Origin: an uncultured Thermoanaerobaculia bacterium
GTDB taxonomy: Bacteria; Acidobacteriota; Thermoanaerobaculia; Multivoradales; JAGPDF01
DNA length: 64,000 bases
Direction of reading: 5' to 3'
Assembly (NCBI GenBank): GCA_964471955.1
Contig: CAYYIK010000007.1
Span: 2,729 to 66,728 of the forward strand
In this document: positions 47,653-63,109 of the stretch, in pieces
Layout of the letters: the number at the start of each line of letters is the position of its first letter
Numbering within the stretch: position 1 is the stretch's first letter
Program-made: the position numbers and the translations under genes
The notes under the pieces: generated by a model
Seen by the model: the letters and a program-made list of their open reading frames with translations, nothing else
Databases searched by the model: none
What the model was told of the DNA's origin: nothing

Positions 47653-47961
47653 GTGGAAGCCGCCGACTTTCTCCCGCTGCTCGGTAGCCGGTTCCAGGTC
47701 GACCGCTCCGGCCCTACGATCCACCTCGAACTCGTCGAGGTACGACGCTCGCCGCCGGGCAGCGAGGCCGAGGCGCGGCACCGTGCCGCCGCCGGCATCC
47801 GGGAAGAACCGTTCACCCTGCTCTTTCGCGGCCCGCGCGACACTCCCCTCGACCAGCGGATCCATCGCCTCGAGCAGGACCGGCTGGGGACGCTCGAGAT
47901 CTTTCTGGTACCCGTGCGGCCCGACGACCGGGGGCCTCTTTACGAGGCGGTCTTCAACTGA
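47653..47961 (+). CDS. Small conserved hypothetical protein (resembles the roughly 100-aa family ending ...YEAVFN, possibly DUF6916; name from memory, unverified)
   Basis: 102 aa, GTG start. Pattern F.PL.G..F.V...L.LVEV...PF.L.F.GP...L.Q....L....LG.LE.FLVP....YEAVFN. Its 3' end overlaps the convergent GNAT gene by 8 nt. Confidence 0.65.
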   Translation: MEAADFLPLLGSRFQVDRSGPTIHLELVEVRRSPPGSEAEARHRAAAGIREEPFTLLFRGPRDTPLDQRIHRLEQDRLGTLEIFLVPVRPDDRGPLYEAVFN

Positions 47962-48454
47962 CCGGACGCCATTCGAGGAGCCGGTAGACCTCGCCCGCCG
48001 CGCCGATCTCGCGGAAGCCGAGTCGGTCGTACAGGGCGCGCGCCGGATTGAAGCGCTCGACGTGGATGGTCAGAGGAACCCCGACGGCTCCGGCCTCGCG
48101 TTGAAGGTCTCCGATCAGGCGGGTTCCGGCGCCGAGCCGGCGGAACCCGGGGAGCAGCGCGATGTCGACCAGCCGGATCTCTGCCGGCCGTCGATCGACA
48201 TAGAGGCGCCCCGCGGCATGGCCGTCGATTTCGACGACCTGGAAGCTGCACCCGGGATACTGCAGCCGCCACCAGCGATCCTGCGCCTCGAACTGCTGGC
48301 GCAGAAACGCCTCTTTCTGCGCCGCCGTCCACGCGACCGGCGCGAGTTCCTCGGCTCGGGTAGAGGCGTAGACGCCGAAGAGGAACTCCCGATCCGCAGC
48401 CGTCACCGGCCGCAGCGCCAGCGACGCCTTCGGCTCAGGCCTCGTCGCCGACAC
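47954..48454 (-). CDS. GNAT family N-acetyltransferase
   Basis: 166 aa, GTG start. The acetyl-CoA region is LLPGFRRLGAGTRLIGDLQREA, with NPARALYDRLGF at the C-terminus. It is the last gene of the long minus-strand operon. Confidence 0.82.
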   Translation of the reverse strand: MSATRPEPKASLALRPVTAADREFLFGVYASTRAEELAPVAWTAAQKEAFLRQQFEAQDRWWRLQYPGCSFQVVEIDGHAAGRLYVDRRPAEIRLVDIALLPGFRRLGAGTRLIGDLQREAGAVGVPLTIHVERFNPARALYDRLGFREIGAAGEVYRLLEWRPVS

Positions 48455-49220
48455 TCTCGACAGTCATCACCAGCGAGGCGAGCGCCGCGGGAAATGGCTC
48501 CTCCTCCCCTGGCAGGTACCGCTCCAGGTCCCAGGCCCCCTCGGTGAGGCCGAGGAAGTAGACGCCGGCCTGGAGTCGTGGCACGCCACCTTCCTTGCCC
48601 AGAGTGAGCCTGGCCCGGCGCCGGACTCCCGAGTCCGGGATCGCCGTTCGATCGGTCGGCCGCCGGTCGCCGGCCGCCCCGTCAACGCGCACTTCGAGCA
48701 CCAGCGGGTCGTACTCGTCGAGCCAGCTGCGGAACCGGATCGGCGACGACGCACCAGAGGCTCTCCGGTAGCTCCAGGCGTGGAACGGGAGCTGTCGCCC
48801 CAGCTCGTCACGCACCAGGACGTCGAGATCGATCTCCCGCGGCGGTGTCACGCCGCGCTCCGGACCCGCGAGGAGGCCCTGGACGCGGATCCGGACGCTC
48901 CCTGCGGCGAGTCGCGGGTCGCCTGCCGGCAGCGAGAAGGCGGGCACGACGATCGACTCGGCCGCGAACGGCCGCTCCTCGTCCGCCTCGAGCGGCACCG
49001 ATACGGGCCACCGCGGTGTCGCGAGTGCGTCGCTGCCCAGCAGGTAGCCGACGGAGAGGGCCGCAGCGGCAGCCGTTTCTCTCTTCGTCGTGGCGGCCAG
49101 CGCCCAGCCGGGCGACAGCGCCAGTGCCCCTCCGGCGACCAGCAGCTCGCGCCGGCCGAACGGCGTCGAAACCCACGCCGGTTCGTGTGAAGACTTCGCC
49201 CTGCGTTCCTCGTGGCTCAA
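48435..49220 (-). CDS. Hypothetical exported protein with a twin-arginine-like signal
   Basis: The TTG at 49220 is preceded by GAGGAG and overlaps the methyltransferase stop (TTGA). 261 aa. The signal is FGRRELLVAGGALALSPGWALA. I recognised no domain. Confidence 0.6.
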   Translation of the reverse strand: MSHEERRAKSSHEPAWVSTPFGRRELLVAGGALALSPGWALAATTKRETAAAAALSVGYLLGSDALATPRWPVSVPLEADEERPFAAESIVVPAFSLPAGDPRLAAGSVRIRVQGLLAGPERGVTPPREIDLDVLVRDELGRQLPFHAWSYRRASGASSPIRFRSWLDEYDPLVLEVRVDGAAGDRRPTDRTAIPDSGVRRRARLTLGKEGGVPRLQAGVYFLGLTEGAWDLERYLPGEEEPFPAALASLVMTVESVGDEA

Positions 49221-49786
49221 GATCCACTCCTCGGCGGCGAGGCCGCCTCCGGCTCCGGCGGCGCCCCGACCCGCCAGAGCCGGATCGTCCGCGGCGTCCC
49301 GTCGCCGTCGACGAAGCGCTCGGTGCGCGCCGGCTCCGGGGACTTCAGAGCGAAGCTGTGGGAGACGATGCGCGTCCCCGCCGGCAGCTCCGCGATCAAC
49401 CGATTGCCGATCCGTTCGGTCGACCACTCGACCAGGTAGAGAGTGATGACCGTCGCCTCGCGCGGAACCAGGTCGCTGGCGTCGCGGACCTCGAAACGGG
49501 TGCTCGCCGCGACGCCGGCCCGCTCGGCCTCCTCGCGGGCCCGCTCGACCCAGAACGGCTCGACGTCGTAGCCGATTCCGCGCGCGCCCCGGCGCGCCGC
49601 CGCGATCACGATCCGGCCGTCGCCGCAGCCGAGATCGCAGACGACGTCGTCCGCGCCGACCTCGGCCAGGTCGAGCATCCGTTCCACGACCTCGGGCGGC
49701 GTCGGCACGTACGGAGCCAGCACGTAGCGTGGAGCGACCGGTCCGTTGTCCGGTGTGATCGAGTCTGCGACGGCGGCGATCGTCAT
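49217..49786 (-). CDS. Class I SAM-dependent methyltransferase
   Basis: 189 aa with motif I VVCDLGCGDGRIV and an acidic loop GYDVE. Its start is 1 nt after the stop of the third tail-collar gene. Confidence 0.78.
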   Translation of the reverse strand: MTIAAVADSITPDNGPVAPRYVLAPYVPTPPEVVERMLDLAEVGADDVVCDLGCGDGRIVIAAARRGARGIGYDVEPFWVERAREEAERAGVAASTRFEVRDASDLVPREATVITLYLVEWSTERIGNRLIAELPAGTRIVSHSFALKSPEPARTERFVDGDGTPRTIRLWRVGAPPEPEAASPPRSGS

Positions 49787-49787
49787 C

Positions 49788-50309
49788 TCAGGTCCGCGGC
49801 GGGAAGACGCCCTGCAAGGCGATCGCGAAGTAGCACGTCAGGTACGGCTGCATGTTGTTGTGCGGCTGGTCGCCGCCGCCAGGAGCCAGGGCCTGGTCCG
49901 ACGCGCTCGCGTTCGGAGACGCCTGATACAGAGCTCCTCCGCCGGAGAGTGCGAAGGACGCAGAGGCGCTCGCAACATTGGTGTCGGCCAGGTCGACGAC
50001 GTTGGCGCGCAGAGTGTGGGAATGCGCGGGAATCTCCGATTGAAGGAGCGAAACCGTCTCGCTGCCTCCCGTCTCCCCCAGGTCGTGCAGGGACAATCCC
50101 GGGCCTTGTCCCGGCTGCATCGGTGCGCGACCCTGAAGGTCCGGCAGTGCGAAGTTGCTCTTGCCGTTGCCTCCGTATGTCGTGCCGAGCAGCGAAAAGA
50201 GCGCCGTATTCTGCGACAGGGGAAGAAGCTGCCCGTCGCACCACGCCCAGCCCTTCGGGGCGAAGTTGAACGGGAAGATCCGGATCTCAGCGACGAAGGG
50301 ATCTGCCAT
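49788..50309 (-). CDS. Phage tail-collar domain protein (MdpB/COG4675-like), paralogue 3
   Basis: 173 aa: MADPFVAEIRIFPFNFAPKGWAWCDGQLLPLSQNTALFSLLGTTYGGNGKSNFALPDLQGRAP...QPYLTCYFAIALQGVFPPRT. Confidence 0.9.
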   Translation of the reverse strand: MADPFVAEIRIFPFNFAPKGWAWCDGQLLPLSQNTALFSLLGTTYGGNGKSNFALPDLQGRAPMQPGQGPGLSLHDLGETGGSETVSLLQSEIPAHSHTLRANVVDLADTNVASASASFALSGGGALYQASPNASASDQALAPGGGDQPHNNMQPYLTCYFAIALQGVFPPRT

Positions 50310-50321
50310 GACGTCTCACTC

Positions 50322-50825
50322 TCAGGCCGGGCTCGGGAAGATTCCGAACAACGAAATGATGAAATTGACGCAGAGATAGGGCTGGAAGTTCGTGTGCGGC
50401 TGGCTGCCGCCCGTCGACCCGATCGCCGCAGCATTCATGTTTCCGCTCGGAGCGTCGTTGATGTACGGGGTGACGTTGAAGGAGTTCGCCGGGAGATTGC
50501 CCGAAGCGTTGATCTGGTCCCCGGTAACTCCGGCGGCGAGCAGCGGATGGCCGTGCGCCGGAATCTGCTGAATCGTGAGCGTGATCTCCTCCGCGCCTCC
50601 GGTCTCCGCGAGGATGAATCCGCTCCCCTGATGAATCGGAATCCGCCCGCGCAGGTCGGGCAGCGCGAAGGTGGACTGCCCGTCGCCTCCGTAGGTGGTG
50701 CCGATCAACTGGAACAACGTCTCGTTCTCCGAGATCGGCAGCAGCTGACCCTCGCACAGCATCCAGCCTGCCGGCGCGAAGTTTCCGCCGAACATCCGGA
50801 TCTCTCCAACGTAAGGTTGCGCCAC
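50322..50825 (-). CDS. Phage tail-collar domain protein, paralogue 2
   Basis: 167 aa. The GTG start is preceded by GAGGAGG, which overlaps the upstream stop. MAQPYVGEIRMFGGNFAPAGWMLCEGQLLPISENETLFQLIGTTYGGDGQSTFALPDLRGRIP...QPYLCVNFIISLFGIFPSPA. Confidence 0.9.
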   Translation of the reverse strand: MAQPYVGEIRMFGGNFAPAGWMLCEGQLLPISENETLFQLIGTTYGGDGQSTFALPDLRGRIPIHQGSGFILAETGGAEEITLTIQQIPAHGHPLLAAGVTGDQINASGNLPANSFNVTPYINDAPSGNMNAAAIGSTGGSQPHTNFQPYLCVNFIISLFGIFPSPA

Positions 50826-50835
50826 GACGGCCTCC

Positions 50836-51336
50836 TCAGTTCGGGCTCGGGAAAATGCCCTGGAGGGCGATACAGAAGCTGATCGTGAGGAACGGCTGCA
50901 TGTTCAGATGCGCCTGGCTTCCTCCGACGGCGGTCACGGTGGCGGAGCTCATGGCGACCAGGGATGCCGGCGCGTGGTAAGCGTTGTTGGCCCCTCCGAG
51001 GACCCTTCCCGCCGGATTCACGTTGCCGCCGGTCGAGGCCGAGGAGACCGCCAGCACATGCACGTGTTGCGGCATCTCCGCGATCGACAAGGTGTGGGCC
51101 TGCTCTCCCCCGCGCTCACCGAGCGTGTGCGCCGATCCGACGTGAATCGGGGCGCGCCCGCGCAGGTCGGGCAGCGCGAAATTGACGCGGCCGTCGCCGC
51201 CGAAGGTCGTTCCCAGGAGAGAAAACAGGGCCTGGTTCTGATTGATCGGCAACAGCTGGCCGTTGCAGAGGGCCCAACCCTTGGGAGCGAACTGGAAGCT
51301 GAACAGTCGAACTTCGCTCAGGAACGGTTCGGCCAT
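50836..51336 (-). CDS. Phage tail-collar domain protein, paralogue 1
   Basis: 166 aa with SD GAGAGGAAG. MAEPFLSEVRLFSFQFAPKGWALCNGQLLPINQNQALFSLLGTTFGGDGRVNFALPDLRGRAP...QPFLTISFCIALQGIFPSPN. Confidence 0.9.
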   Translation of the reverse strand: MAEPFLSEVRLFSFQFAPKGWALCNGQLLPINQNQALFSLLGTTFGGDGRVNFALPDLRGRAPIHVGSAHTLGERGGEQAHTLSIAEMPQHVHVLAVSSASTGGNVNPAGRVLGGANNAYHAPASLVAMSSATVTAVGGSQAHLNMQPFLTISFCIALQGIFPSPN

Positions 51337-51372
51337 GGTCTTCCTCTCATCCGCGACTCGTGCACCAGCGCG

Positions 51373-54300
51373 TCACGGCAGCGGGCAGGCAGCGCCGCCC
51401 GGGGTATTGACGAAACCGCCGCCCGTAGGCACGGTATTCGACGCGATCGCCGAGGGCACTCCGTCTCCCGAGTTCCGCGCGATCAGGTAGTTCTGGACCG
51501 CGGTGTTGTCGTTGTTGGCGCCCGCGTATCCGCGCAGCGCAACGGTCGTCGCCTGCCGCTGGCGGAGTCGGATGTCTTCGCCTCCCGCCGGAATGTCGCT
51601 GGGCGCGCCCGCGGTCGAAACCGAGTTCTGGAGAGCCCCGGCTCCGCCCGCGTCGAGGCAGATCTGGTAGGTGTCTCCGGGCACTGTGCCGGCGTTCAGG
51701 TGAATCCCGTTCTTCGGGATCGAAGCGGTGGCCGGATTGGTACCCGGAAGCGTGATCAGATTGCCCGTGATCGTGGCGTTCAGGGCGCCGGGCTGCGCCG
51801 TCGCCCCGCCGCCAGTCAGCAGCTCGATGCCGAAGTTGTTGTACCAGCGGATCGTGTTGCCGCTGATCAGCGCGTCGATCGCCCCCTGGCCGACGCTCTG
51901 GATTTTGAGCGCCGATCCCTCCAGCGATCCGGAGTTGGGCGTCGCGGCCGCGCCGATCGTATTTCCCTGGAACGTCAGATCGAGGCTGCCCACGCCGGTC
52001 GGCTTGACGATCAACACCGCCGGCCCGACCGCGTCGCGGAAGCTGTTGTTCTGAACGACGAACGTGTCCGAGCTCGTGGCGCCGGCGAAGAAGGAAACTC
52101 CACCGCCGCCCGTCGCGATTCCGCCGTGGTTGTTGCTCAGCGTATTGCCCGTGAAGGCGAAGGTGAAGGCGCCGTTCGAGTTGTTGTTGACCTGGATCAG
52201 GTCGCCACGGGCGGACGTGAAGGCTCCATTCTGGACGGTGACGTTCATCGTCGCGCCAGCCGAACCGAGAGTCTCGAAGTAGGCCCCGTCGTTGCCGTCG
52301 GACAGGCTGTTGGCGCCGATCGTGACCCCGGAGAGAGTCACCGTGAGCGCTCCAGCGGTGTTGACGATCCTGAGATTGTCTTCGAAACCGCCGCTCACGT
52401 TGCAGTTCGTGAAGGTCGCCGTACCGGTCAGCTCGCTGAACCGGATACTCCCCTCGTCCGCCGCGGCGCTGTTGCCGTTGACGCCGTTGACGACGCTGTT
52501 GTCGAGGTTGAAACCCGTGACGGAAGCGCCGCGAATCGCGAAGTCGCCGAAGTCGTCGAGCTGCATCCAGGAGAACGACGGGTTCAGCGTGCTGGTGAGC
52601 GAGATACCGGTGCTCGTCGCGTTCCGAATCGTGCCGCCGGTCGCGGCCGAGCCCGTTCCGGAGACGATGAGCCTGCCTGCACCTCCCGTCGCATTGAGGA
52701 TCAGGCCGTTGGCCGGATCAGCAGCGGCCGTCGCATTTCCCGAGCTGATCGACCGGAAGCTCAGGTTCGAGGTCCCGATCGGCGTGCTGGTCACCCGCAA
52801 TGCGGTCGCGCTGACCGAGTCGATGGTGTTGATTCCGGTGATGTTCAAACCGAGCGCGTTGGTGTTGCTGGTCGCCGCGAAGCCCTCGCCGGTGGTGGTG
52901 TCGATGTCGAGTCCGCCGCTGAAGGTGATCGCCCGGCTGCCGGCGTTGCCGTTGAGCAGGATGCCGGCGCCGTTCTCGTCGACGGCGCCCGAGAGCAGCA
53001 AGTCGTCGCTCGCGTCGTCTCCGGCCCAGGTCGTGATCGAGACGGCTCGCGCCGTCGCCGAGTTGTTGGTGATCGTCCCGGCGTAGTTGATGCGGCCGTT
53101 GCCACCGCTGACGTTGAAAGCGGGTCCGGCCGCTCCCGCCGCGGTCGTGATCGTGCTGCCGGCGCCGGCGGTGAACTGGGCGTCGAAAGCCGGATTGATC
53201 GCGTCGAGCACCGTCGCCAGCGAGACGCCCGTCGTCGTCGTGTTCGTGCTCCGAATCGTGGTCAGCGGCAGCGAGGCGGTCAGGTTGGAAAGGTCGACCG
53301 CCGGACCGCCCGTCGCTTCCGCCATCCCCACGCCCGCGCCCACCGACACGCGCGTACCCGTTCCCGCACCGACGTTCACGGCGCCGGTGCCGCTGACGCG
53401 GATCGCGGCGCCGTTGTCGGCGAAGACGTCGAGGTCGGTGAAGGCGAGGTCGCCCGAGACGTTGGTCAGAACCAGACCGCTCGCGCCGACGCCGTTGCCC
53501 GGCGCGCCGACCACCGTGGCGCCGCCCGCGACCTGCTGATAGGCGCCTCCCGGCGTGGCGTCGAGCGTCAACGGACCCGTGAGCACCAGGCCCGAGCCGC
53601 CGGTGTTGCCGGAGACCACGTTGTCGTCGAAGGCCGTGACCTGAACGGTGCCGTTGGTCCTCGCCACGTCGAGGCCGGTGCCGCCGGCGGTGATGCTGTT
53701 GTCGTGGATCGAGAGCGTCAGCGTCCCGGTGCCGCCGGCGTTGACGTCGATCCCCTCGGCACCGGAGGCACGCACGGTGTTGTTCGCGATCGTCAAAGCG
53801 CCCGACCCGCCGAAGGCGCCGGTGAGCGTGACGTCGACGGCGTTCGCGTTGCCGGCCAGATTCAGGCCGACGATCTCGGTCGGGATCAGATCGGTGGCCA
53901 TCACCGCGCTGCCGCCGACCGTGGTGTTGTCGAGCATCGGCCGGGTACCCGGTGCGATCAGCACGACGGGCGAGGCACCGCCGTTCAGCACGACCGGGAT
54001 CGAGAGCCCCGCCCCTTCGCCCACCAGATGCTGACCCGCCTTGAGCGTGATGCCGGCGTTCTGCCCGGTGGTGGCGCCGTCGCCGTTGTAGACGAAGATC
54101 CAGTCGTTGGCACCCGAGGCGGTCTGCGCTTCGACCAGGGTGTCGAATGGATCGATCGAACGTCCGAGACCGCCGGCGGTCGCGTCGTTGCGGACGTACC
54201 AGACCCGCTGGAGGAACGAAATCGTCACCGTGCCCTGGACGCTCACGTCGCCGTCGGAGACGTTGTACGTGAAGCTGTCGTCGACCGTTCGCCCGGCCGG

Positions 54301-56514
54301 CGACGTGTAGCTGAACGTGCCGTCCGAGGCGACCGCGACCACCGCGCCGGCGGTCGCCGTACCGAGCGACGTGGTCAACGCCGCCGGGCCGTCCGGATCG
54401 CTGTCGTTGGCGAGCAGGTTCCCCGCCGCGAAGACGTAGGGACCGTTCGCGTCCGGCCCGGGATCGATTGCCGCGACCCGCAGCCGGGTGTTCGAAATCG
54501 TCTGGAACGACTCGCCGGTGATCACCGGAGGATCGTTGACCGGCGTAACGGTGACGCTCTTCGACGCCGTGTTGCTCGGATCGGCGCCGTCGTTCGCGAC
54601 GAAGGTGACGAGGCGGTCCGGCAGGGCCGTCGGGCTCTGGGAAGCGTTGGCGTAGAGGACCGAGCGCAGGCAGCCCTGGTAGACCGCGACCGTCGCCGTT
54701 CCCGAGATCGCCAGCGCGTGGCCCGGCGCGGAGACGACGAGGCCCGGGCAGGTTGTGCCCGGCGCAGCGACCGAGAGCGCCTCCTGGCCGCCGTTCTGCG
54801 GATTCGTCAGCGACACGATCGCCGAGACGAGATCCGCGTCGTCGGCGTCGGTGACGTTCAGCGCACCGTCGACCACCACCGCGCCGGCGTCTTCGACGAA
54901 CGAGGTCGCGCCGCCGCTGGTTGTGACCACCGGTACATCGTTGACCGCGGTGATCTCGACCGTCGACGTCGCGGCGGCGCTCGACTCGACGCCGTCGCTC
55001 GCGCTCCAGGTTACCGTGCGGTCGGACGGGTCGGGATCCTCCGAGCTGTTCTCGTAGGCGACCGAGCGCAGCGCCGCCTGCCAGGCAGCGACGGTATCGA
55101 GTCCGTTCAGGGCGAGGGTGCCGGTCGCCGGCGCGAAGACGCCGGTGATGCTGGGCGTGTTCGTGAACGACAGGACGTCTTCCCCGCTCTGGAAGTTGCC
55201 GGTGATCTGCACCGTCGCCGAGACCAGATTGGCGCTGTCGACGTCGCTGACCGTGAGCGCGGCGTCGACCGCGGTCGGCGGATCGTTCTCGGTGTAGGCG
55301 AGCGTGCCGCCGGCGACGACGACCGGCGGCGCGCGGTCGATCACGATCCGGGCGCGGGCCGTGGCCGGGCCGATCGGCGCGCCCGAGGCGTCCACCGTCG
55401 GGTCTCCCGCCGCCGCGGCGATCGTGTAGGCGAAGTCGTCGACGCCGTTGAAGCCGGCCGGCGGCGTGTAGACGAAGTGCCCGTCGGCGGCGACGTCGAC
55501 GCTGCCCCCCTGGCTGGTTGCCTGCCCCGCCGCCGGCACCGCGGCGAGCGAGTCGCCGTCCGGATCGGTGTCGTTGCCGAGCAGCGCGGGCAGCGCCGCC
55601 GTCGAGCTGTCGATCGGCTGGTCGGTGACCGTCCGGTAGACGTCGGGTCGTGCCAGCGGCGTCGTGCGCACCGAACCGGCGACCAGCGCCAGATTGGAGT
55701 CGAGGATGTCCGCGAGCTCGACGCCCGTGGCGCCGCCACCGGCGTTCGAGATCGTGATCCGGTAGCGAATGGTGTCTCCCGGCACGACCGCGCCGGGAAT
55801 CGGATCCCCGGCCGGCGTGCGGTCGACCTTGAGCGCCGCGAGTTCGGGAGCCGCCGTGCGCAGCTCCGAGAGCATCAGCGCCGGCGTCGCTTCCCCCGAC
55901 TCGACGCGAAGGACGATCGCGCCCACCGCGGAGAGATCCGCCGGCGTCGCCGCGCCGGGCGCCTGCGCCAGGCTCGAGAAGTCGACGAAGATGTCGACGG
56001 GAGCCGCGATCGCCGGCAGGACCAGGGCGCCGCGCGACACCGAATCGGCGTCCTCGTAGATCTCGAGCACCAGGGAGGTGCCCGCCGCCGCCGCGTCGAT
56101 GGTGAAACGGAAGGCGCCCGCGCCGCCGGCGGTCAGGTCGACGCCGCCCAGCCCGGCCGGGTCGATCGCGTCGGGGTCGCTGTCGCCGTCCCAGATCACG
56201 AAGACCGCACCGCGCGAGTCGGGCGTGGTCGCGGTGACGCCGACGTCCAGCGCGCCGCCCGCCACGCCGGCGGTGACCGGCCCCGCTCCGGCGAAGCGTT
56301 GCACCCGCAGTCCGCGGTTCTGACCGAGGATGTCGGCGCCGCCGGTGACCGCGTTGCTGGCGCCGCCGGGCGGATCCGAGATCACGGTCTGGTTGGTCGT
56401 GAACTGATCGACGACGACCTGGCCGGCGACCGGTGCGGCGGCCAGGACCAGTCCGGCGACGAGTGCGGCGAGCGCGGCGGGCCGTCGCGGCGAGGGTCTC
56501 ATGGCGCCTCTCAT
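51373..56514 (-). CDS. Giant secreted protein (1713 aa): unknown N-terminal domain, DUF11-like and cadherin/VCBS-like modules, then a long right-handed parallel beta-helix region
   Basis: The ATG overlaps the upstream stop (ATGA). Signal peptide RRPAALAALVAGLVLAAAPVAG. Modules seen: GDTIRYRITISNAGGGATGVELADIL (DUF11-like); NDTDPDGDSLAAV...GFNGVDDFAYTI (cadherin/VCBS-like); repeated ...VSDVDS.NLVSATV.I...AL.SV.Y.N... modules; and many Gly/Asn/Thr-rich beta-helix turns (NNTVRASGAEGIDVNAGGTGTLTLSIHDNSITAGGTGLDV). Confidence 0.85.
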   Translation of the reverse strand: MRGAMRPSPRRPAALAALVAGLVLAAAPVAGQVVVDQFTTNQTVISDPPGGASNAVTGGADILGQNRGLRVQRFAGAGPVTAGVAGGALDVGVTATTPDSRGAVFVIWDGDSDPDAIDPAGLGGVDLTAGGAGAFRFTIDAAAAGTSLVLEIYEDADSVSRGALVLPAIAAPVDIFVDFSSLAQAPGAATPADLSAVGAIVLRVESGEATPALMLSELRTAAPELAALKVDRTPAGDPIPGAVVPGDTIRYRITISNAGGGATGVELADILDSNLALVAGSVRTTPLARPDVYRTVTDQPIDSSTAALPALLGNDTDPDGDSLAAVPAAGQATSQGGSVDVAADGHFVYTPPAGFNGVDDFAYTIAAAAGDPTVDASGAPIGPATARARIVIDRAPPVVVAGGTLAYTENDPPTAVDAALTVSDVDSANLVSATVQITGNFQSGEDVLSFTNTPSITGVFAPATGTLALNGLDTVAAWQAALRSVAYENSSEDPDPSDRTVTWSASDGVESSAAATSTVEITAVNDVPVVTTSGGATSFVEDAGAVVVDGALNVTDADDADLVSAIVSLTNPQNGGQEALSVAAPGTTCPGLVVSAPGHALAISGTATVAVYQGCLRSVLYANASQSPTALPDRLVTFVANDGADPSNTASKSVTVTPVNDPPVITGESFQTISNTRLRVAAIDPGPDANGPYVFAAGNLLANDSDPDGPAALTTSLGTATAGAVVAVASDGTFSYTSPAGRTVDDSFTYNVSDGDVSVQGTVTISFLQRVWYVRNDATAGGLGRSIDPFDTLVEAQTASGANDWIFVYNGDGATTGQNAGITLKAGQHLVGEGAGLSIPVVLNGGASPVVLIAPGTRPMLDNTTVGGSAVMATDLIPTEIVGLNLAGNANAVDVTLTGAFGGSGALTIANNTVRASGAEGIDVNAGGTGTLTLSIHDNSITAGGTGLDVARTNGTVQVTAFDDNVVSGNTGGSGLVLTGPLTLDATPGGAYQQVAGGATVVGAPGNGVGASGLVLTNVSGDLAFTDLDVFADNGAAIRVSGTGAVNVGAGTGTRVSVGAGVGMAEATGGPAVDLSNLTASLPLTTIRSTNTTTTGVSLATVLDAINPAFDAQFTAGAGSTITTAAGAAGPAFNVSGGNGRINYAGTITNNSATARAVSITTWAGDDASDDLLLSGAVDENGAGILLNGNAGSRAITFSGGLDIDTTTGEGFAATSNTNALGLNITGINTIDSVSATALRVTSTPIGTSNLSFRSISSGNATAAADPANGLILNATGGAGRLIVSGTGSAATGGTIRNATSTGISLTSTLNPSFSWMQLDDFGDFAIRGASVTGFNLDNSVVNGVNGNSAAADEGSIRFSELTGTATFTNCNVSGGFEDNLRIVNTAGALTVTLSGVTIGANSLSDGNDGAYFETLGSAGATMNVTVQNGAFTSARGDLIQVNNNSNGAFTFAFTGNTLSNNHGGIATGGGGVSFFAGATSSDTFVVQNNSFRDAVGPAVLIVKPTGVGSLDLTFQGNTIGAAATPNSGSLEGSALKIQSVGQGAIDALISGNTIRWYNNFGIELLTGGGATAQPGALNATITGNLITLPGTNPATASIPKNGIHLNAGTVPGDTYQICLDAGGAGALQNSVSTAGAPSDIPAGGEDIRLRQRQATTVALRGYAGANNDNTAVQNYLIARNSGDGVPSAIASNTVPTGGGFVNTPGGAACPLP

Positions 56515-59444
56515 GGCACGACGGCGCTCCAGCGCGAGGTATCGCCCGTCTCGAATCCGTCATTGAACAGCAGCGGCGAGGGCCGCACGTAGAGCTGATC
56601 GAAGTGCGCGGTAAACAGGGCGTCCGTGGTTGTCCTGGCCTCGATCGTCCAGCGAGCCGAGGCGGTGCCGGCGGGCGCCCGCTGCGGGTCGACCAGTTCG
56701 AGCCAGGCTCCGGCCGAGTCGAAGAACGGCTGGGCGACTTCGACCGAACCCGCCGTTCCCGTGCAGCCGGCGCCGGTGAAGTACTCGACGCGTCGCGCCA
56801 CGGTCACCGGCGTGCCGGCGCTGGCGGCGATCCGCACGCGGGTCACCAGCTCATAGTCGGCGGCGACCAGCGGCGTGCACTGGGCGACGGAGAATTCCGA
56901 CGGACCCTGCGGCGGGCCGAGCAGCGGATCGATCCGCAGCGCCCCCGAGACCGGCGCGTCGTCGAGGTCGACGGCCGGATCGTGGATCACGTCGCCGGTG
57001 CCCTCGGGCGTCGCCTGCCAGGCCCGCAGGTCGCAGTCGAAGTGGCCGTTGAGCAGGCGATTGCCCGCATCGATCCGGAATCCGAGCTCGTGCTCGTCGT
57101 CGCCCGAGGGGGTCGAATCGCCGTCGAGCGGGTTGCCCGCGACGTCCTCGAGCGTCGGGCAGACCAGCAGCCGGTAGGGGCGGTCGCCGAGCGCTTCGCC
57201 GAAGGTCACGGTCGCGACCGACGGAGAAGCCTGATAGACGACTGCGGTGGCGTCGATCGCCACGTCGTCGCCGGCCGGTGGCCCGCACAGCGCGGTCGAG
57301 AACGCGCCGTCGGGACCGGTCGCGAACAGCCGGTAGTTGTCCGGGTTGGTGACGTCCTCGGGGTCGGCGTCGCCGGCCGGATCGGCCATCTCCTCGCTGA
57401 ATTCGAGCGCGAGCGCGGTCGGCGTGGCGAGCACCGTGTCGCACTCCGCGATCTCGCCGTCGGGGCTCGCGGGGACCGAGTCGACGATCACGATCGTCGG
57501 TGCGGTGAGGTCGAGCGCCACCGTCTCGCAGTCGTCGTTGTCGCCCGGGACCGGGTCGGGCCCGTTCGAGCCGTCGTCGGCGATCGAAGCGCAGTTGTCG
57601 ATCTCGGTCGTGCCCGGCGGCAGCGGGTCGTCGAGCTCGACGGCGAAGACGGCGATGCCCGCGCCGCCACCGCCATCGAGAGATCCGATCGCCAGATCAC
57701 AGGCGGTGCCGGCGGGTGCACCGTCGGCGCACGACCAGCCGGCGGTCGAGGCCGCGGCGTCGAAGGTGGTGTCGACCGGCACCGTCTCGGACAGGACGAC
57801 GCCGACAGCCGTCTGGTTGCCGGCGTTCGAATAGGCGAGATCGAAGGCGATCGTGTCACCCGGGAACGGCACGCCGCCCGAATAGCTCTTGACAATCGCC
57901 AGGTCCGGCGCGGCTTCGATCGGCGTGGAGTCCTCGGCGCCGTTGTCGCCCGGGTTCGGGTCGGCACCGTTGGCGCCGTCGTCGGCCACGCTGGCGACGT
58001 TGACCACCTCGCTGACGCCGGCGGGCAGCGGCGTCTCGACTTCGACGGCGAACGTCGTCGAGCCGCTCCCCCCGCCCGCCACCGCACCTACCGCGTACGT
58101 GCAGGCGGTGCCCTCGGGCGAGCCGTCCGGGCACGACCAGCCGGGCGTCGAAGCCGCGGCGTCGAAGACCGTGAACGGCGGCACGAGCTCCGACAGTACG
58201 ACGCCGGTCGCCCCCTGGTTGCCGCCGTTCGACCAACCAAGCGCGTACGGGATCGTGGAACCAGGAGTCGACGTGATCCCGCCGTCACTCTTGGTCAGCG
58301 CGAGGTCCGGCTGGGCGTCGACAGGCGTGGTGTCCGAGGCCGAGTTGTCGCCGGGATTCGGATCGGCGCCGTTGACGCCGTCGTCGGCGATCGAGGCCGT
58401 GTTGGCGATCTCGGTGACGCCGGCGGGGACCGGATTCGCGACGGTAACCGCGAAGGTCGCCGAGCCCGAGGCGCCGCCGCCGACGAGCGAACCGACCGCG
58501 AGCGTGCAGACCGCGCCCGGATTGCCGTCGGGGACGCACAGCCAGCCGGCCGTCGACGCGCCCGGGGCGAAGACCGCGTTGGCCGGAACGGTCTCGCTGA
58601 GCGTCACGCCGGTCGCCTCCTGATTGCCGTCGTTGGCGTAGGAGAGGACGTAGGCGACGGTCGCGCCCGGGACCGCCGAGATTCCGCCGTCGCTCTTGGC
58701 CAGGGTCAGGTCGGGCGCGGCGTCGACCGGAGTGGTGTCGGTCGAGCTGTTGTCGGCCGGCGTCGGGTCGGCGCCGTTGGCACCGTCGTCGGCGATCGTC
58801 GCCGTGTTCGAGATCTCGTCGAGCCCCGCCGGCACCGGCGAGTCCACAGTGACCGCGAAGGTCGCCGAACCCGCAGCGCCGCCGCCGGCGAGCCCGCCGA
58901 CCGTCAAGTTGCAGACCGACCCCGGGTTGGCGTCCGGAACGCAGATCCAGCCCGCGGTCGAGGCGCCGGCGTCGAAGGTGGTGCTCGCGGGCACCACTTC
59001 GCTCAGCGTCACGCCGCTCGCCGCCTGGTCGCCGTCGTTGGCGTAGGCGAGCAGGTAGGCGACGGTTCCGCCCGGAACGACCGAAACGCCGCCGTCGCTC
59101 TTGGCCAGGCTGAGATCCGGCTGGGCAACGACCGGTGTGAGGGTCGGGTCCTGGGCGCCCGGCTCGCCGGGATCGTCCGTGAGCAGCGTGGCGGCGTTGG
59201 TCGCCTGGATGGTCGCCTGATTGGTCACCTCGACGACTCCGGCCGGCAGCGGCGTGTCGACGGTCACCAGGAACTCGATGGTGACCGCGCTGCCTGCCGG
59301 CAGGATGCCGATCGACGTGTCCTGCGCCCACGCGGTCGCGGCGGCGCCGAAGGCCGCGCCTGCGATCAGCCATCTGCGAAGCCACGCGTGCCGCGAAACC
59401 AACCGCTCGCTCCTTCCGTCGACGACGGGATGCGGACGCAGCAT
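56511..59444 (-). CDS. Secreted DUF11-repeat protein (4 full and 1 partial repeat of about 133 aa) with an Ig-like and a CenC/CBM4_9-like domain and the C-terminal GFExGD-W tag
   Basis: ATG 59444 is preceded by GGAG; the track ORF starts at TTG 59468. Signal WLRRWLIAGAAFGAAATAWAQD. Repeats read PDL.LAKSDGG......G.TVAY.L.YAN.G.Q.A.GV.LSE.VP, each with two Cys. Then NGHFDCDLRAWQ (CBM-like). The protein ends LFNDGFETGDTSRWSAVVP. Confidence 0.88.
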   Translation of the reverse strand: MLRPHPVVDGRSERLVSRHAWLRRWLIAGAAFGAAATAWAQDTSIGILPAGSAVTIEFLVTVDTPLPAGVVEVTNQATIQATNAATLLTDDPGEPGAQDPTLTPVVAQPDLSLAKSDGGVSVVPGGTVAYLLAYANDGDQAASGVTLSEVVPASTTFDAGASTAGWICVPDANPGSVCNLTVGGLAGGGAAGSATFAVTVDSPVPAGLDEISNTATIADDGANGADPTPADNSSTDTTPVDAAPDLTLAKSDGGISAVPGATVAYVLSYANDGNQEATGVTLSETVPANAVFAPGASTAGWLCVPDGNPGAVCTLAVGSLVGGGASGSATFAVTVANPVPAGVTEIANTASIADDGVNGADPNPGDNSASDTTPVDAQPDLALTKSDGGITSTPGSTIPYALGWSNGGNQGATGVVLSELVPPFTVFDAAASTPGWSCPDGSPEGTACTYAVGAVAGGGSGSTTFAVEVETPLPAGVSEVVNVASVADDGANGADPNPGDNGAEDSTPIEAAPDLAIVKSYSGGVPFPGDTIAFDLAYSNAGNQTAVGVVLSETVPVDTTFDAAASTAGWSCADGAPAGTACDLAIGSLDGGGGAGIAVFAVELDDPLPPGTTEIDNCASIADDGSNGPDPVPGDNDDCETVALDLTAPTIVIVDSVPASPDGEIAECDTVLATPTALALEFSEEMADPAGDADPEDVTNPDNYRLFATGPDGAFSTALCGPPAGDDVAIDATAVVYQASPSVATVTFGEALGDRPYRLLVCPTLEDVAGNPLDGDSTPSGDDEHELGFRIDAGNRLLNGHFDCDLRAWQATPEGTGDVIHDPAVDLDDAPVSGALRIDPLLGPPQGPSEFSVAQCTPLVAADYELVTRVRIAASAGTPVTVARRVEYFTGAGCTGTAGSVEVAQPFFDSAGAWLELVDPQRAPAGTASARWTIEARTTTDALFTAHFDQLYVRPSPLLFNDGFETGDTSRWSAVVP

Positions 59445-59503
59445 AGAGACTCCGCAGGCGCGATACAAGCGTCACGCGACGGTTTCGTCGTGGCGCGCGC
59501 GGC

Positions 59504-60259: not shown

Positions 60260-63109
60260 TCAGCGCGGCAGGCGGGCCAGCAGCGGATCGTGGTCGCTGG
60301 CGCGCTCGGCGTCGGGGCAGTCGGAGTCGAGGTGCACCGCTTCGATGCGTGCTCCGCGCGCCAGCGACGGCGACACGAGGAGATGATCGATCGCCGCCGA
60401 GCCCCCTTCGAAGGAGAAGGTGTAGCGCTCCTCGGGCGCCAGGCGCAGGACCAGGTTCTCGAGCGGCGGCCGGCCGATCTCGCGCATCGGTTCGCTGCCC
60501 GCGACATCGTTGAAGTCGCCGATGACGATCAGCCGCGCCGTCGGATCGGCGGCGAGACGCGACATCGCGAAAGCGCGTACCTCGCGCGCCTGGGCGAGGC
60601 GGCGCGCCGCGGTCGGCCGGCGTGGCGGCTGGACAGCGCCGAAGGCGCGGTCGTCCTCGTACTTCGAGGACCAGTGGTTGACCACGACGACGACCGGCCG
60701 CCAGCGACGGAAAAAGCGGCGCCCGGTCGGCACCTCGACCTCCACCACCAGAGAGCGACGCACCCCCTCACCGTCGGCCCCAGAAGGCGCGAATGCGGCC
60801 GATGCCGGCGCGAGCCGGGCCGGGTTGACCTCCAGCCGTCCGTCGGCGCCGAAGCGCGCCTCGGTCCTCGCATCGGGCTGGCCGCGCGGTGCGAAGCGGA
60901 CGCGCGCCGGATCGAGCAGCAGAGCGACCCGGATGTTGCCCCCCGGCTGCCCCCCCTCGCGGTCGGCTTCGGGGTCGATCTGCACGGCCCGATAGGTCGG
61001 CCCGCCGGCCCGCTCGATCGCCGCTACGAGCTTCGCCAGCGTCCCTTCGGCGGAGACGACAGCGTCGCCGCCGCGCGGACCGGAGTCGTCCTGAACCTCC
61101 TGCAGCGCCACCAGCTCGGGCGCTCCGAGGCCGCGCACGATCCGCGCCGCGAGGCGCTCGAAGCGGTCCTCGTCGTCGGCCGCCGAGAGGTTGTAGAGGT
61201 TGTACGACGCGATGGCGAAGCGCCCCGGCTCGTTCTCCGAGCGCGCCGGGCGCGAGCAGGGGGCGCCCGACGGGAGAATCTCCGGCGGCGCGAGCGGCTG
61301 CAGGCGGTAGTTGGAGAAGGCGTAGTCGACGATTCCGGTAAGCGGTCCGGCCACCCGGTCGCCCACCGCGGCGCGCGGCATGCCGCCCGCCAGGCGTCCG
61401 GAGACGAAGACGCGCGCCAGCGGGCCGCCGCCATCGCGCAGCGCCAGGGCCCCCCCGGCCGCCGACGCACCACTCGACGGCACCCCTTCGGGCAGGACGA
61501 CGATCTCGCCGAACGAGCGGGTGGCGCCGGCCACCACGCTCTCGGGCAGCGTGGCGCGCATCCCCTCGAGGCTCTCCCAGAAATCGATCGCGTCTTCGCC
61601 CGGCTGAAAGAGCGCCAGCGCGTCGTCGTCGACCTGCGGCGGGATCTCGAGCTCATACCAGAGCAGCGGCGGCTCGGGCAGCGCCGCGCCCGCCGGCACG
61701 AATTCGAACGCCGCCAGCTCGAGCGTCGTCACGCTCAGCTGGTCGCGCCCGGGGACCCGCTCGAGGAGCCGGCCGCCGACCCGCACTGTCGCGCCGACCG
61801 CGACGCCGTCCAGCCGCGCGGCCGCGACGAAGAGCCCCTCGGAGGTCCGCGGGTCGCCGTCCGGCCGCGTCGACTCGATCCAGAAGCCGCGATCGCGCGG
61901 GCGATCGACCCGCGCGGTCACCGTCCCCTCGATTCCCGTCACCCAGCGTCCGGCCAGCGGCGAATGGTGACCGGCGCCCTGCAGGTCGGCGATCGTCAAC
62001 GGCGAGAAGTCGACCGCGAAGGCGAGGACCTGGGTCACCTGCTCGGCGGGCGAGAAGTTGTCGTCCGACACGACGACCAGCGAGCTGCGGCCGTCCGGCA
62101 GCCGAGGTCCGAAAGCGATCCCTTCGAGGTTGTCCAACCGCAGGCCGAGGCCGGCGAAGTCGAGCAGCAGGAGTTTGCCGGCGGCGCGCGGCGGCGGCTC
62201 GGGCAGGCGGTCGAAGTCGGCCACCGGCGCGGCGCCGGCGAGGTCGACGAGGAAGAGCCTCGCTTCGACCCCCACCCCTTCGACGTACTGCCGCTCGAGC
62301 GCCAGCAGACGGCTGGGCGAGAGCGCCAGCAGATCGACCAGGCCGTTGACCCGGAAGGCCCCCTCGCCCGGCGGCGTGCCGCGGATCGGCTCGACCGCGA
62401 GGACGAACTCTTCCGGCGGCGCCTCCGGTGCGGTGAGGTTCCAGCGCAGCAGGCGCGCCGAGGCGGCGACCCCGAAGTCGGCCTCCGGTCCGTCCTGGGC
62501 CAGCGCCGACTCGGTGGCCCCGAACAGGAATCGGCCGTCGGGCGAGCGCGCCAGACTCTCGAAACCGAGGTTCTCGCGCACGCCGCGACTCCCCCGGTCG
62601 TCGGGCAGGAAGCGGTCGCGCAGGGGCAGATCGCGACGCCAGCGACCGCCGCGATCGAACTCGGCGACGAACGGCGCCAGGCCGACCTTGGCCTCCCCCT
62701 CCGAGCCGACGAAGAGGGCGTCCGGCGCGAGGGCGAAGCCCTCCGGATCGAGGCTTCGGGGGGGGAACGGCCGGCCCAGCCGGTCGGCGAGGGGGATCTG
62801 GCCGACGACCGACACCCCATCCGGAGGGAGCCGGCCGGAGGTCAGGTCGACGCGCAGCCGCATCACCCGCGCCGGACCGTGGACGCTGCGGTCGTCGCTC
62901 ATCGCCAGGAACTCGCCGCTCGCCGGATCGAACGAGAGCGAGGAGAGACCGCCCACCGGAACCCCGTCGAACGTCGTGCCGCGCGGCAGCTCCGCGGCGC
63001 CGATCCACTCGAACGAAGTCGGGACGGCGATTTCGGCGGCGGCGGCTGCGGCGGCGAAGAGAGAGAGGATCGCCGCGAGGGCGAAGCGCGGCGGCGGGCG
63101 ATCGGGCAT
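60260..63109 (-). CDS. Secreted multidomain nuclease/phosphatase: N-terminal phytase-like (esterase-like) beta-propeller plus an ExeM/NucH-like extracellular endonuclease (EEP fold)
   Basis: 949 aa. Signal peptide FALAAILSLFAAAAAAA. GGLSSLSFDPASGEFLAMSDD marks the phytase-like part. IADLQGAGHHSPLAGRWVTGIEGTVTA...GFWIES marks an ExeM/NucH-type OB-like module. The C-terminal EEP motifs are ASYNLYNL, LVALQEVQD, VVNHWSSK, GDFND and ASDHDPLLARL. Confidence 0.82.
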   Translation of the reverse strand: MPDRPPPRFALAAILSLFAAAAAAAEIAVPTSFEWIGAAELPRGTTFDGVPVGGLSSLSFDPASGEFLAMSDDRSVHGPARVMRLRVDLTSGRLPPDGVSVVGQIPLADRLGRPFPPRSLDPEGFALAPDALFVGSEGEAKVGLAPFVAEFDRGGRWRRDLPLRDRFLPDDRGSRGVRENLGFESLARSPDGRFLFGATESALAQDGPEADFGVAASARLLRWNLTAPEAPPEEFVLAVEPIRGTPPGEGAFRVNGLVDLLALSPSRLLALERQYVEGVGVEARLFLVDLAGAAPVADFDRLPEPPPRAAGKLLLLDFAGLGLRLDNLEGIAFGPRLPDGRSSLVVVSDDNFSPAEQVTQVLAFAVDFSPLTIADLQGAGHHSPLAGRWVTGIEGTVTARVDRPRDRGFWIESTRPDGDPRTSEGLFVAAARLDGVAVGATVRVGGRLLERVPGRDQLSVTTLELAAFEFVPAGAALPEPPLLWYELEIPPQVDDDALALFQPGEDAIDFWESLEGMRATLPESVVAGATRSFGEIVVLPEGVPSSGASAAGGALALRDGGGPLARVFVSGRLAGGMPRAAVGDRVAGPLTGIVDYAFSNYRLQPLAPPEILPSGAPCSRPARSENEPGRFAIASYNLYNLSAADDEDRFERLAARIVRGLGAPELVALQEVQDDSGPRGGDAVVSAEGTLAKLVAAIERAGGPTYRAVQIDPEADREGGQPGGNIRVALLLDPARVRFAPRGQPDARTEARFGADGRLEVNPARLAPASAAFAPSGADGEGVRRSLVVEVEVPTGRRFFRRWRPVVVVVNHWSSKYEDDRAFGAVQPPRRPTAARRLAQAREVRAFAMSRLAADPTARLIVIGDFNDVAGSEPMREIGRPPLENLVLRLAPEERYTFSFEGGSAAIDHLLVSPSLARGARIEAVHLDSDCPDAERASDHDPLLARLPR

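Follow-up and report, generated by a model that had tools for sequence, protein, structure and literature searches.

A fixed triplet of phage-tail Collar proteins in a non-phage bacterial cassette, and the case for a heterotrimeric fibre tip

We investigated a 64,000-nucleotide (nt) stretch of DNA, hereafter the window, from an uncultured Thermoanaerobaculia bacterium of the Acidobacteriota (assembly GCA_964471955.1, contig CAYYIK010000007.1, positions 2,729 to 66,728), in which three tandem genes encode small proteins of the phage tail Collar family, here called A, B and C. An earlier note, made from the sequence alone, had described them as tandem tail-collar (MdpB-like) paralogues of 166, 167 and 173 amino acids (aa). 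Coordinates and sizes proved exact, and Pfam placed all three proteins in Collar/COG4675. The triplet consists of the following open reading frames (ORFs).

50836..51336, minus strand: Collar protein A, first gene, 166 aa (ORF; Pfam Collar PF07484, E 4.4e-28)
50322..50825, minus strand: Collar protein B, second gene, GTG start, 167 aa (ORF; Pfam Collar, E 2.4e-29)
49788..50309, minus strand: Collar protein C, third gene, 173 aa (ORF; Pfam Collar, E 3e-27; Gp10_C, E 4.4e-6)

The PF07484 scores of A, B and C were 94.8, 101.5 and 97.5 bits against a Pfam cut-off of 24 bits. The T4 Gp10 C-terminal domain (Gp10_C) matched weakly in A and C, and no NCBIfam model matched any of the three; homologues carry the JGI name 'microcystin-dependent protein'. 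The best PDB matches of B were a phage long tail fibre (8kec, E 1.2e-6) and T4 gp12 (1e-3). A and B are separated by 10 nt and B and C by 12 nt, each spacer containing a Shine-Dalgarno-like sequence. A gap of 36 nt separates A from the stop codon of a gene for a giant exported protein, and a methyltransferase gene begins 1 nt past the stop of C.

A, B and C are 47-52% identical to one another. The common N-terminal motif and the C-terminal QP[FY]L...G[IV]FP motif pointed out earlier were both present in our alignment, with the following N-termini and contexts of a single HxH motif: MAEPFLSE and MPQHVH in A, MAQPYVGE and IPAHGH in B, and MADPFVAE and IPAHSH in C. By inspection none of the three has a signal peptide, since the Collar domain takes in their very N-termini. 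The contrast with exported partners drawn in the earlier note was also borne out, the 1713-aa and 985-aa proteins encoded upstream having signal-peptide-like N-termini.

In a further step, we scanned one genome per GTDB species for relatives of C. This yielded more than 575, and the best 80 loci, whose C is 72-86% identical to that of the window, were kept for counts of the cassette. Their hosts belong to Chromatiaceae, Burkholderiales, Sphingomonas, Mesorhizobium, Lysobacterales, Verrucomicrobiota, Solirubrobacterales, Thermoanaerobaculia, Pyrinomonadaceae, Chloroflexota, Bacteroidota, Gemmatimonadales and Polyangia. Homologues of B numbered more than 8000, the best 120 of these at 81-100% identity.

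The survey of exact threes proposed in the earlier note returned a clear pattern: 74 of the 80 loci contain exactly three Collar ORFs, one A-type, one B-type and one C-type, in this order. The other six comprise one locus with two full triplets, one with three, one in the order B-A-C, one at a contig end and two in which B is split. Orthologues at the same position are about 74% identical to the window protein, versus about 49% for the other two paralogues. Orthogroup-specific hidden Markov models (HMMs) assigned one A, one B and one C even in most sets that are only 45-55% identical, loci L088 and L093 being too diverged for such assignment. The recovery of the three types in divergent sets, including those of Paenibacillus and L090 in the order B-A-C, indicates that the composition is conserved and not only an inherited order. 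Sets of the AAB, AB or AC kind were not seen among the loci examined, and divergent relatives (44-56% identity) hold 3, 6 or 9 Collar copies. Among 2.9 million viral contigs of IMG/VR we found only five loci, with 3, 9, 3, 6 and 3 copies. Most PLSDB plasmid records have three (Aminobacter, Comamonas, Deinococcus, Ruegeria/Tritonibacter, Paenibacillus, Rhizobium and Ensifer). Possible pseudogenisation in relatives, which the earlier note had named as counting against a heterotrimer, was confined to three disrupted B genes in draft metagenome-assembled genome loci, namely the two split genes and a truncated one in L045. Phage homologues of B share about 40% identity with it and are mostly minor tail proteins present in a single copy.

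Some arrangements depart from the common one. The order B-A-C occurs in L085 (Paenibacillus pART37) and L090; in pART37, the triplet is immediately preceded by an acetyltransferase gene that shares 8 nt with the first Collar gene. Tandem arrays of two or three complete triplets (6 or 9 Collar genes) were observed in L040 (Gemmatimonadales), L032 (Chiayiivirga), L088 and L090 (IMG/VR), with extra giant genes between the triplets of L040 and L032. Such arrays may represent several fibre-tip variants in one genome. A lone Collar gene lies on an Aliiroseovarius crassostreae plasmid (L094, 8998-9507), beside genes for a divergent 1334-aa immunoglobulin (Ig)-like protein and a DUF4331 protein.

The triplet forms the fixed A-B-C core of a non-phage cassette that spans about ten bacterial phyla, namely Proteobacteria, Acidobacteria, Actinobacteria, Bacteroidota, Chloroflexi, Verrucomicrobia, Gemmatimonadota, Deinococcus, Firmicutes and probably cyanobacteria. 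The G+C content of the triplet follows that of the host (r 0.94, range 0.44-0.70), which indicates that the triplets have long been resident in their hosts and are not recent transfers. In absolute terms, triplets lie on average 2.7 G+C points under their flanks; in the window, the triplet has a G+C content of 0.646 versus 0.721 for the whole, and a third-position G+C of 0.80-0.83 versus 0.94 for cstA.

We then compared the conservation of the parts of each protein. The N-terminal part of the collar is 89-96% identical between orthologues and the window protein and 55-64% between paralogues within a locus; for the C-terminal part, the values are about 90% and 55-62%. The middle, which would form the tip, has only 38-40% identity between orthologues and about 25% between paralogues, in agreement with the divergent middles noted earlier. 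Unlike those of ordinary diverging paralogues, the collar parts are extraordinarily conserved, at a level comparable to that of core translation proteins, which had gone unnoticed in the earlier note. In 49 columns A, B and C are identical, including both His residues of the HxH motif, which occurs once per chain, is invariant in all orthologues and aligns with an HxH of the phage long tail fibre 8kec. Moreover, 21 columns are at least 90% conserved inside each orthogroup yet differ between paralogues (e.g., Phe/Gly/Phe at column 14). Nearly all of the 232 orthologues have Ala or Ser as their second residue, in a start of the form Met-Ala/Ser-(Glu|Gln|Asp)-Pro; no N-terminal extension was found among them, and the proteins begin at the collar.

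The earlier note had described the triplet correctly but had overlooked the conserved cassette around it, in which a giant exported protein, a GNAT acetyltransferase and a DUF6916 protein recur. The remaining features of the region in the window are as follows.

56511..59468, minus strand: exported protein with DUF11 (CLIPPER) repeats, 985 aa (Pfam DUF11, four copies)
51373..56514, minus strand: giant exported protein, 1713 aa, with DUF11/Big_9/cadherin-like repeats (Pfam, NCBIfam) and a signal-peptide-like N-terminus
49217..49786, minus strand: S-adenosylmethionine-dependent methyltransferase, 189 aa (Pfam methyltransferase domains)
48435..49220, minus strand: variable-slot protein, about 261 aa from a TTG at 49220, with a twin-arginine-like signal (GRRELLVAGGALAL)
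47954..48454, minus strand: cassette-specific GNAT acetyltransferase, 166 aa, RimI/N-terminal-acetyltransferase-like (Pfam Acetyltransf_1)
47653..47961, plus strand: DUF6916 protein, 102 aa, convergent with the GNAT gene and overlapping its 3' end by 8 nt

The cassette comprises about six genes. Beside the triplet, the giant protein is encoded in 74 of the 80 loci, GNAT in 73, DUF6916 in 71, and GNAT and DUF6916 together in 70; loci without one of the latter two are mostly contig ends. Annotated isolates with the cassette are Aminobacter (pSR1), Ruegeria sp. TM1040 (megaplasmid, TM1040_RS01845-RS01875), Paenibacillus (pART37), Deinococcus ficus (pDFI2) and Rhizobium bangladeshense (p5), and the hosts include both monoderm and diderm bacteria. 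Neither in the window nor in annotated relatives did Pfam and annotation reveal any phage gene. The window flanks encode CstA, a Na+/H+ antiporter, an S1-domain protein and a phytase-like enzyme, which upholds the placement outside any phage context made in the earlier note. A literature search found no mention of DUF6916 or of the cassette.

In all 74 loci with a giant homologue, its gene is adjacent to and on the same strand as the triplet; it precedes the triplet in 42 loci and follows it in 23. The relatives have a median length of 1941 aa and Sec-type signal peptides. Conservation covers roughly aa 650-1713 of the window protein, and a repeat region of about 900 aa within the giant is probably a beta-helix; this reading rests on repeat patterns, since a profile of the conserved 900-aa region had no match in PDB or Pfam. 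The giant ends (window 51373-51600) with the motif IRLRQRQATTVALRGYAG...GGGF...CP. A motif of about 70 aa, (D/E)IRLRQRQxTTxRLPGYxG...ND..AVQ.F...N...P.GGGF...CP, terminates giants of several phyla (L001, L003, L004, L006, L018, L066); it had no Pfam or PDB match and could be a sorting or docking element.

GNAT homologues match the cassette profile with E values of 1e-37 to 1e-70. The best PDB relatives of this profile are N-terminal acetyltransferases (6wqb/6wqc, 7wx5), Naa50 and RimI (E 2.6e-15 to 1e-8), and the JGI name is 'RimI-like'. DUF6916 has a PilZ/YcgR-N-like fold, from which the PilZ cyclic di-GMP (c-di-GMP) motifs RxxxR and (D/N)xSxxG are absent in an alignment read by eye. A Foldseek search of PDB and BFVD with DUF6916 gave nothing below E 0.02, and an HMM match to a phage neck/adaptor protein (E 0.048) is suggestive only. 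In many loci a second ORF of about 150-180 aa with a weak match to the DUF6916 profile lies between the triplet and GNAT, for example at 10546-10974 of L001, 8280-8810 of L008 and 10550-10987 of L034.

Co-variation among the parts of the cassette was investigated by Mantel tests on distances between loci. Whole-protein distances of A, B and C correlated mutually (r 0.40-0.48) and less with those of GNAT or DUF6916 (r 0.10-0.25). When the proteins were divided, the collars of A, B and C correlated with one another at r 0.75-0.80 and their tips at r 0.49-0.58, while a tip and its own collar reached only r 0.16-0.22. Mean tip distance correlated with the distance of the giant protein (r 0.38, p 0.001), and collar distance did not (r 0.01). 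GNAT and DUF6916 correlated at r 0.62. This pattern indicates three co-evolving modules, namely the three collars, the three tips with the giant protein, and GNAT with DUF6916. It matches what would be expected for one joint collar and one joint tip, and is supportive of such an assembly, not decisive.

The closest structural relatives come from phages. Characterised phage Collar proteins, such as T4 gp12 and gp37, are homotrimers. As in these two and in 8kec, the Collar domain of A, B and C would be followed by an HxH-containing head, after which the chain would return to the collar at the C-terminus. T4 gp12 and gp37 are anchored to the baseplate or fibre by long N-terminal shafts; A, B and C have no sequence ahead of the collar and form a fixed set of three paralogues. 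A phage, prophage or tailocin tail fibre was all but ruled out by the cellular flanks, the lack of an N-terminal shaft or anchor and the identity of only about 40% to phage homologues. Among cellular proteins, the mosaic adhesive trimer (MAT) fibres on the surface of the predator Bdellovibrio, published in Nat Microbiol in 2024, are reportedly long homotrimers, each from a single gene. Like the proposed Collar trimer, they are a cellular use of trimers that resemble phage fibres and recognise surfaces by variable, mosaic tips, but the triplet is made of three short paralogues within a cassette.

A precedent for three Collar chains in one fibre exists in virophages. In DSLV2, of the Aquatic Virophage 1 lineage, three consecutive PF07484 proteins were shown to form a heterotrimer by co-purification, native polyacrylamide gel electrophoresis and electron microscopy; the resulting 16-nm fibre binds Synechococcus lipopolysaccharide (J Virol 2025; PMC12724248). 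Positional orthology of this triplet extends across 44 virophages, one of the three proteins is fairly stable as a modelled homotrimer, and the study does not mention bacterial triplets (PMC12724248). Compared by description, the virophage and bacterial sets each consist of three small PF07484 genes in a row and in one orientation, orthologous by position, and a conserved collar with a variable receptor-binding middle is proposed in both. However, the DSLV2 proteins are longer (196, 205 and 247 aa), adjoin capsid genes and are parts of the virion, whereas the bacterial triplet is chromosomal or on megaplasmids without viral genes, has a far more conserved collar and comes with the giant exported protein, GNAT and DUF6916.

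In bacteria, MrpB/MdpB of Microcystis and RhiB of the Rhizobium rhiABC(D) operon belong to the same Pfam/COG4675 family and are likewise small, non-phage and without signal peptide; RhiB and MrpB have no known function as yet (PMC13133039, PMC3328848). They are set apart by their descriptions as single Collar genes, accompanied by RhiA/MrpA and RhiC and under quorum-sensing or light control, and no triplet, GNAT, DUF6916 or giant protein has been reported for these operons. Microcystis MrpC was reported to be extracellular (review, PMC3328848), a Collar domain in MrpC being unconfirmed. COG4675 proteins have been detected in soil metaproteomes, and a paper on the Anabaena exoproteome makes no mention of Collar proteins. 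In Acaryochloris, induction of three genes annotated as 'phage tail collar' (AM1_3688-3690) goes together with that of the neighbouring acetyltransferase and hypothetical genes (PMC11633204). Instead of the differential expression that the earlier note had set against a heterotrimer, three such genes are co-regulated there.

The best explanation, which we hold with slightly more belief than doubt, is that A, B and C would be the three chains of one 1:1:1 tail-fibre-tip-like heterotrimer encoded by an ancient non-phage cassette. The heterotrimer is the best reading here because the virophage Collar triplet was shown biochemically to be one. Of the obligate heterotrimer proposed in the earlier note, the comparative evidence (composition, signature residues, co-variation and virophage precedent) strongly favours the idea but does not amount to proof; we regard an A:B:C heterotrimer as the best-supported reading and as somewhat probable.

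Several observations weigh against this view. An AF2 monomer model of B, from a 29-sequence alignment, had a pLDDT of 36.5, too low for a fold search. The co-variation of the tips could also result from block recombination or shared descent and is compatible with three homotrimers, and common ancestry alone may account for the correlation of the tips with the giant. The likeness of GNAT to N-terminal acetyltransferases lies mainly within the acetyl-CoA-binding core. Finally, no signal peptide is present in A, B, C, GNAT or DUF6916, and no export gene in the cassette; with hosts that are both monoderm and diderm, this leaves a surface location of the trimer unexplained.

It is this last point that an intracellular role would answer. 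A, B and C could form hetero- or homo-oligomers that act as a chaperone, modifier or quality control of the giant before its export, or in regulation or phage sensing with GNAT and DUF6916. The want of signal peptides extends to the propeller-like protein of the alphaproteobacterial cassettes, secretion genes are missing from the cassette of monoderms and diderms alike, and the PilZ/YcgR-N-like fold of DUF6916 is typical of cytoplasmic proteins. Against this stand the fold family, which is that of receptor-binding fibre tips, the variable tip on a conserved base, which is the pattern of receptor-binding proteins, and the co-variation of the tips with an exported protein. The reported extracellular location of Microcystis MrpC also speaks against it. 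DUF6916 lacks the c-di-GMP motifs, and the defence-system search with PADLOC matched the inserted methyltransferase alone (part of mad2, 4e-17; type II methyltransferase models) and none of A, B, C, GNAT and DUF6916. We consider an intracellular role unlikely.

Three separate homotrimers, AAA, BBB and CCC, might instead provide three fibre tips or specificities, with the genes grouped since all are needed. Such an arrangement would agree with the homotrimeric T4 gp12 and gp37, with the single genes of the phage homologues of B, with the singleton beside an Ig-like giant in Aliiroseovarius and with the modelled stability of one virophage protein as a homotrimer. It would hardly explain a strict 1:1:1 ratio over about ten phyla in copies of 3, 6 or 9 and the lack of any AAB, AB or AC set, and it is also opposed by the paralogue-specific invariant residues within an otherwise identical collar, by the co-variation of the collars among paralogues and by the virophage triplet, which co-purifies as a single complex. 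We judge it improbable. A decaying prophage or tailocin remnant without cellular function is hardly credible: the Collar domain is of phage origin and five related loci lie on IMG/VR 'viral' contigs, but these compare with more than 575 in genomes, phage genes are missing from the window and annotated relatives, collar segments are 89-96% identical across phyla, G+C is ameliorated to each host, the ORFs are intact except for the three disrupted B genes, and expression is regulated in Acaryochloris.

If A, B and C do form a heterotrimer, its assembly can be pictured as follows. The three translationally coupled genes would supply equal amounts of A, B and C, whose N- and C-terminal segments would co-fold into one collar with paralogue-specific packing residues. 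One metal site on the axis, like that of T4 gp12 and gp37, would be made up of an HxH pair from each chain, and the three divergent middles would build an asymmetric distal tip able to bind a ligand. The tip and the giant surface protein would fit each other, the tip either binding the giant or recognizing the same target, probably a glycan, and the outcome would be a function in cell-surface recognition or adhesion. The invariant Met-Ala/Ser N-termini would probably be processed and N-alpha-acetylated by the cassette GNAT. Such acetylation of A, B and C is suggested, as a lead, by the relatives of GNAT together with the invariant Met-Ala/Ser start; the Aliiroseovarius singleton, whose locus has no GNAT, starts with Met-Glu-Pro instead (n = 1). 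The fuller picture of a cross-phylum domesticated phage fibre tip, obligately A:B:C, with its tip matched to the giant, matured by GNAT and DUF6916 and taking a signal-peptide-free route to the surface, is tentative and on balance doubtful.

Other genes of the region vary with the lineage. The slot between C and GNAT holds a protein with a twin-arginine signal in Thermoanaerobaculia, a propeller-like protein of 400-490 aa in alphaproteobacteria and a substrate-binding-protein-like one in Deinococcus. The slot protein of the window, which has no Pfam match, is of the lineage-specific Thermoanaerobaculia type, and a 245-aa homologue occupies the same position in L081 and L082. In Aminobacter (L084, 13071-14555), a long Lys/Ala/Pro-rich, histone-H1-like N-terminal tail precedes a propeller-like region (weak FG-GAP, Tectonin). 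The methyltransferase is a lineage-specific insertion that L081, collinear in all other respects, lacks; it resembles an archaeal protein-lysine N-methyltransferase (E 8.5e-23, below the cut-off) and might act on the Collar proteins as a second modifying enzyme. Likewise, the 985-aa DUF11 protein is a lineage-specific accessory: its stop overlaps the start of the giant gene by 4 nt, and full-length homologues were found upstream of the giant in a few acidobacterial loci only. Further upstream, at 60260-63109 on the minus strand, a 949-aa protein with a phytase-like esterase domain (E 1e-78) and an Exo_endo_phos domain is probably a secreted phosphatase or nuclease; we saw no evidence tying it to the cassette. 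Very long antisense 'shadow' ORFs opposite the real genes, such as one of 1894 aa at 50908-56592 on the plus strand, are artefacts of the 72% G+C content and not genes.

Collar proteins of the MdpB/RhiB kind have been annotated in bacterial genomes for more than 20 years without a function. The present analysis indicates that one large Collar subfamily is a fixed three-chain unit in a cassette and not a collection of loose paralogues. What is new is the cellular, cassette-embedded form of the Collar triplet, the heterotrimeric kind having been shown so far only in virophages. Cultured hosts (Ruegeria sp. TM1040, Aminobacter, Mesorhizobium and Paenibacillus) offer handles on the system. Further handles are GNAT with the Met-Ala N-termini, as a candidate enzyme and its substrate, and the giant protein as a candidate partner. 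Natural heterotrimeric tips would offer an asymmetric binding surface that is unavailable to homotrimeric phage fibres and of interest for the engineering of receptor-binding proteins. If true, a domesticated A:B:C tip matched to a giant protein would constitute an undescribed class of bacterial cell-surface recognition system.

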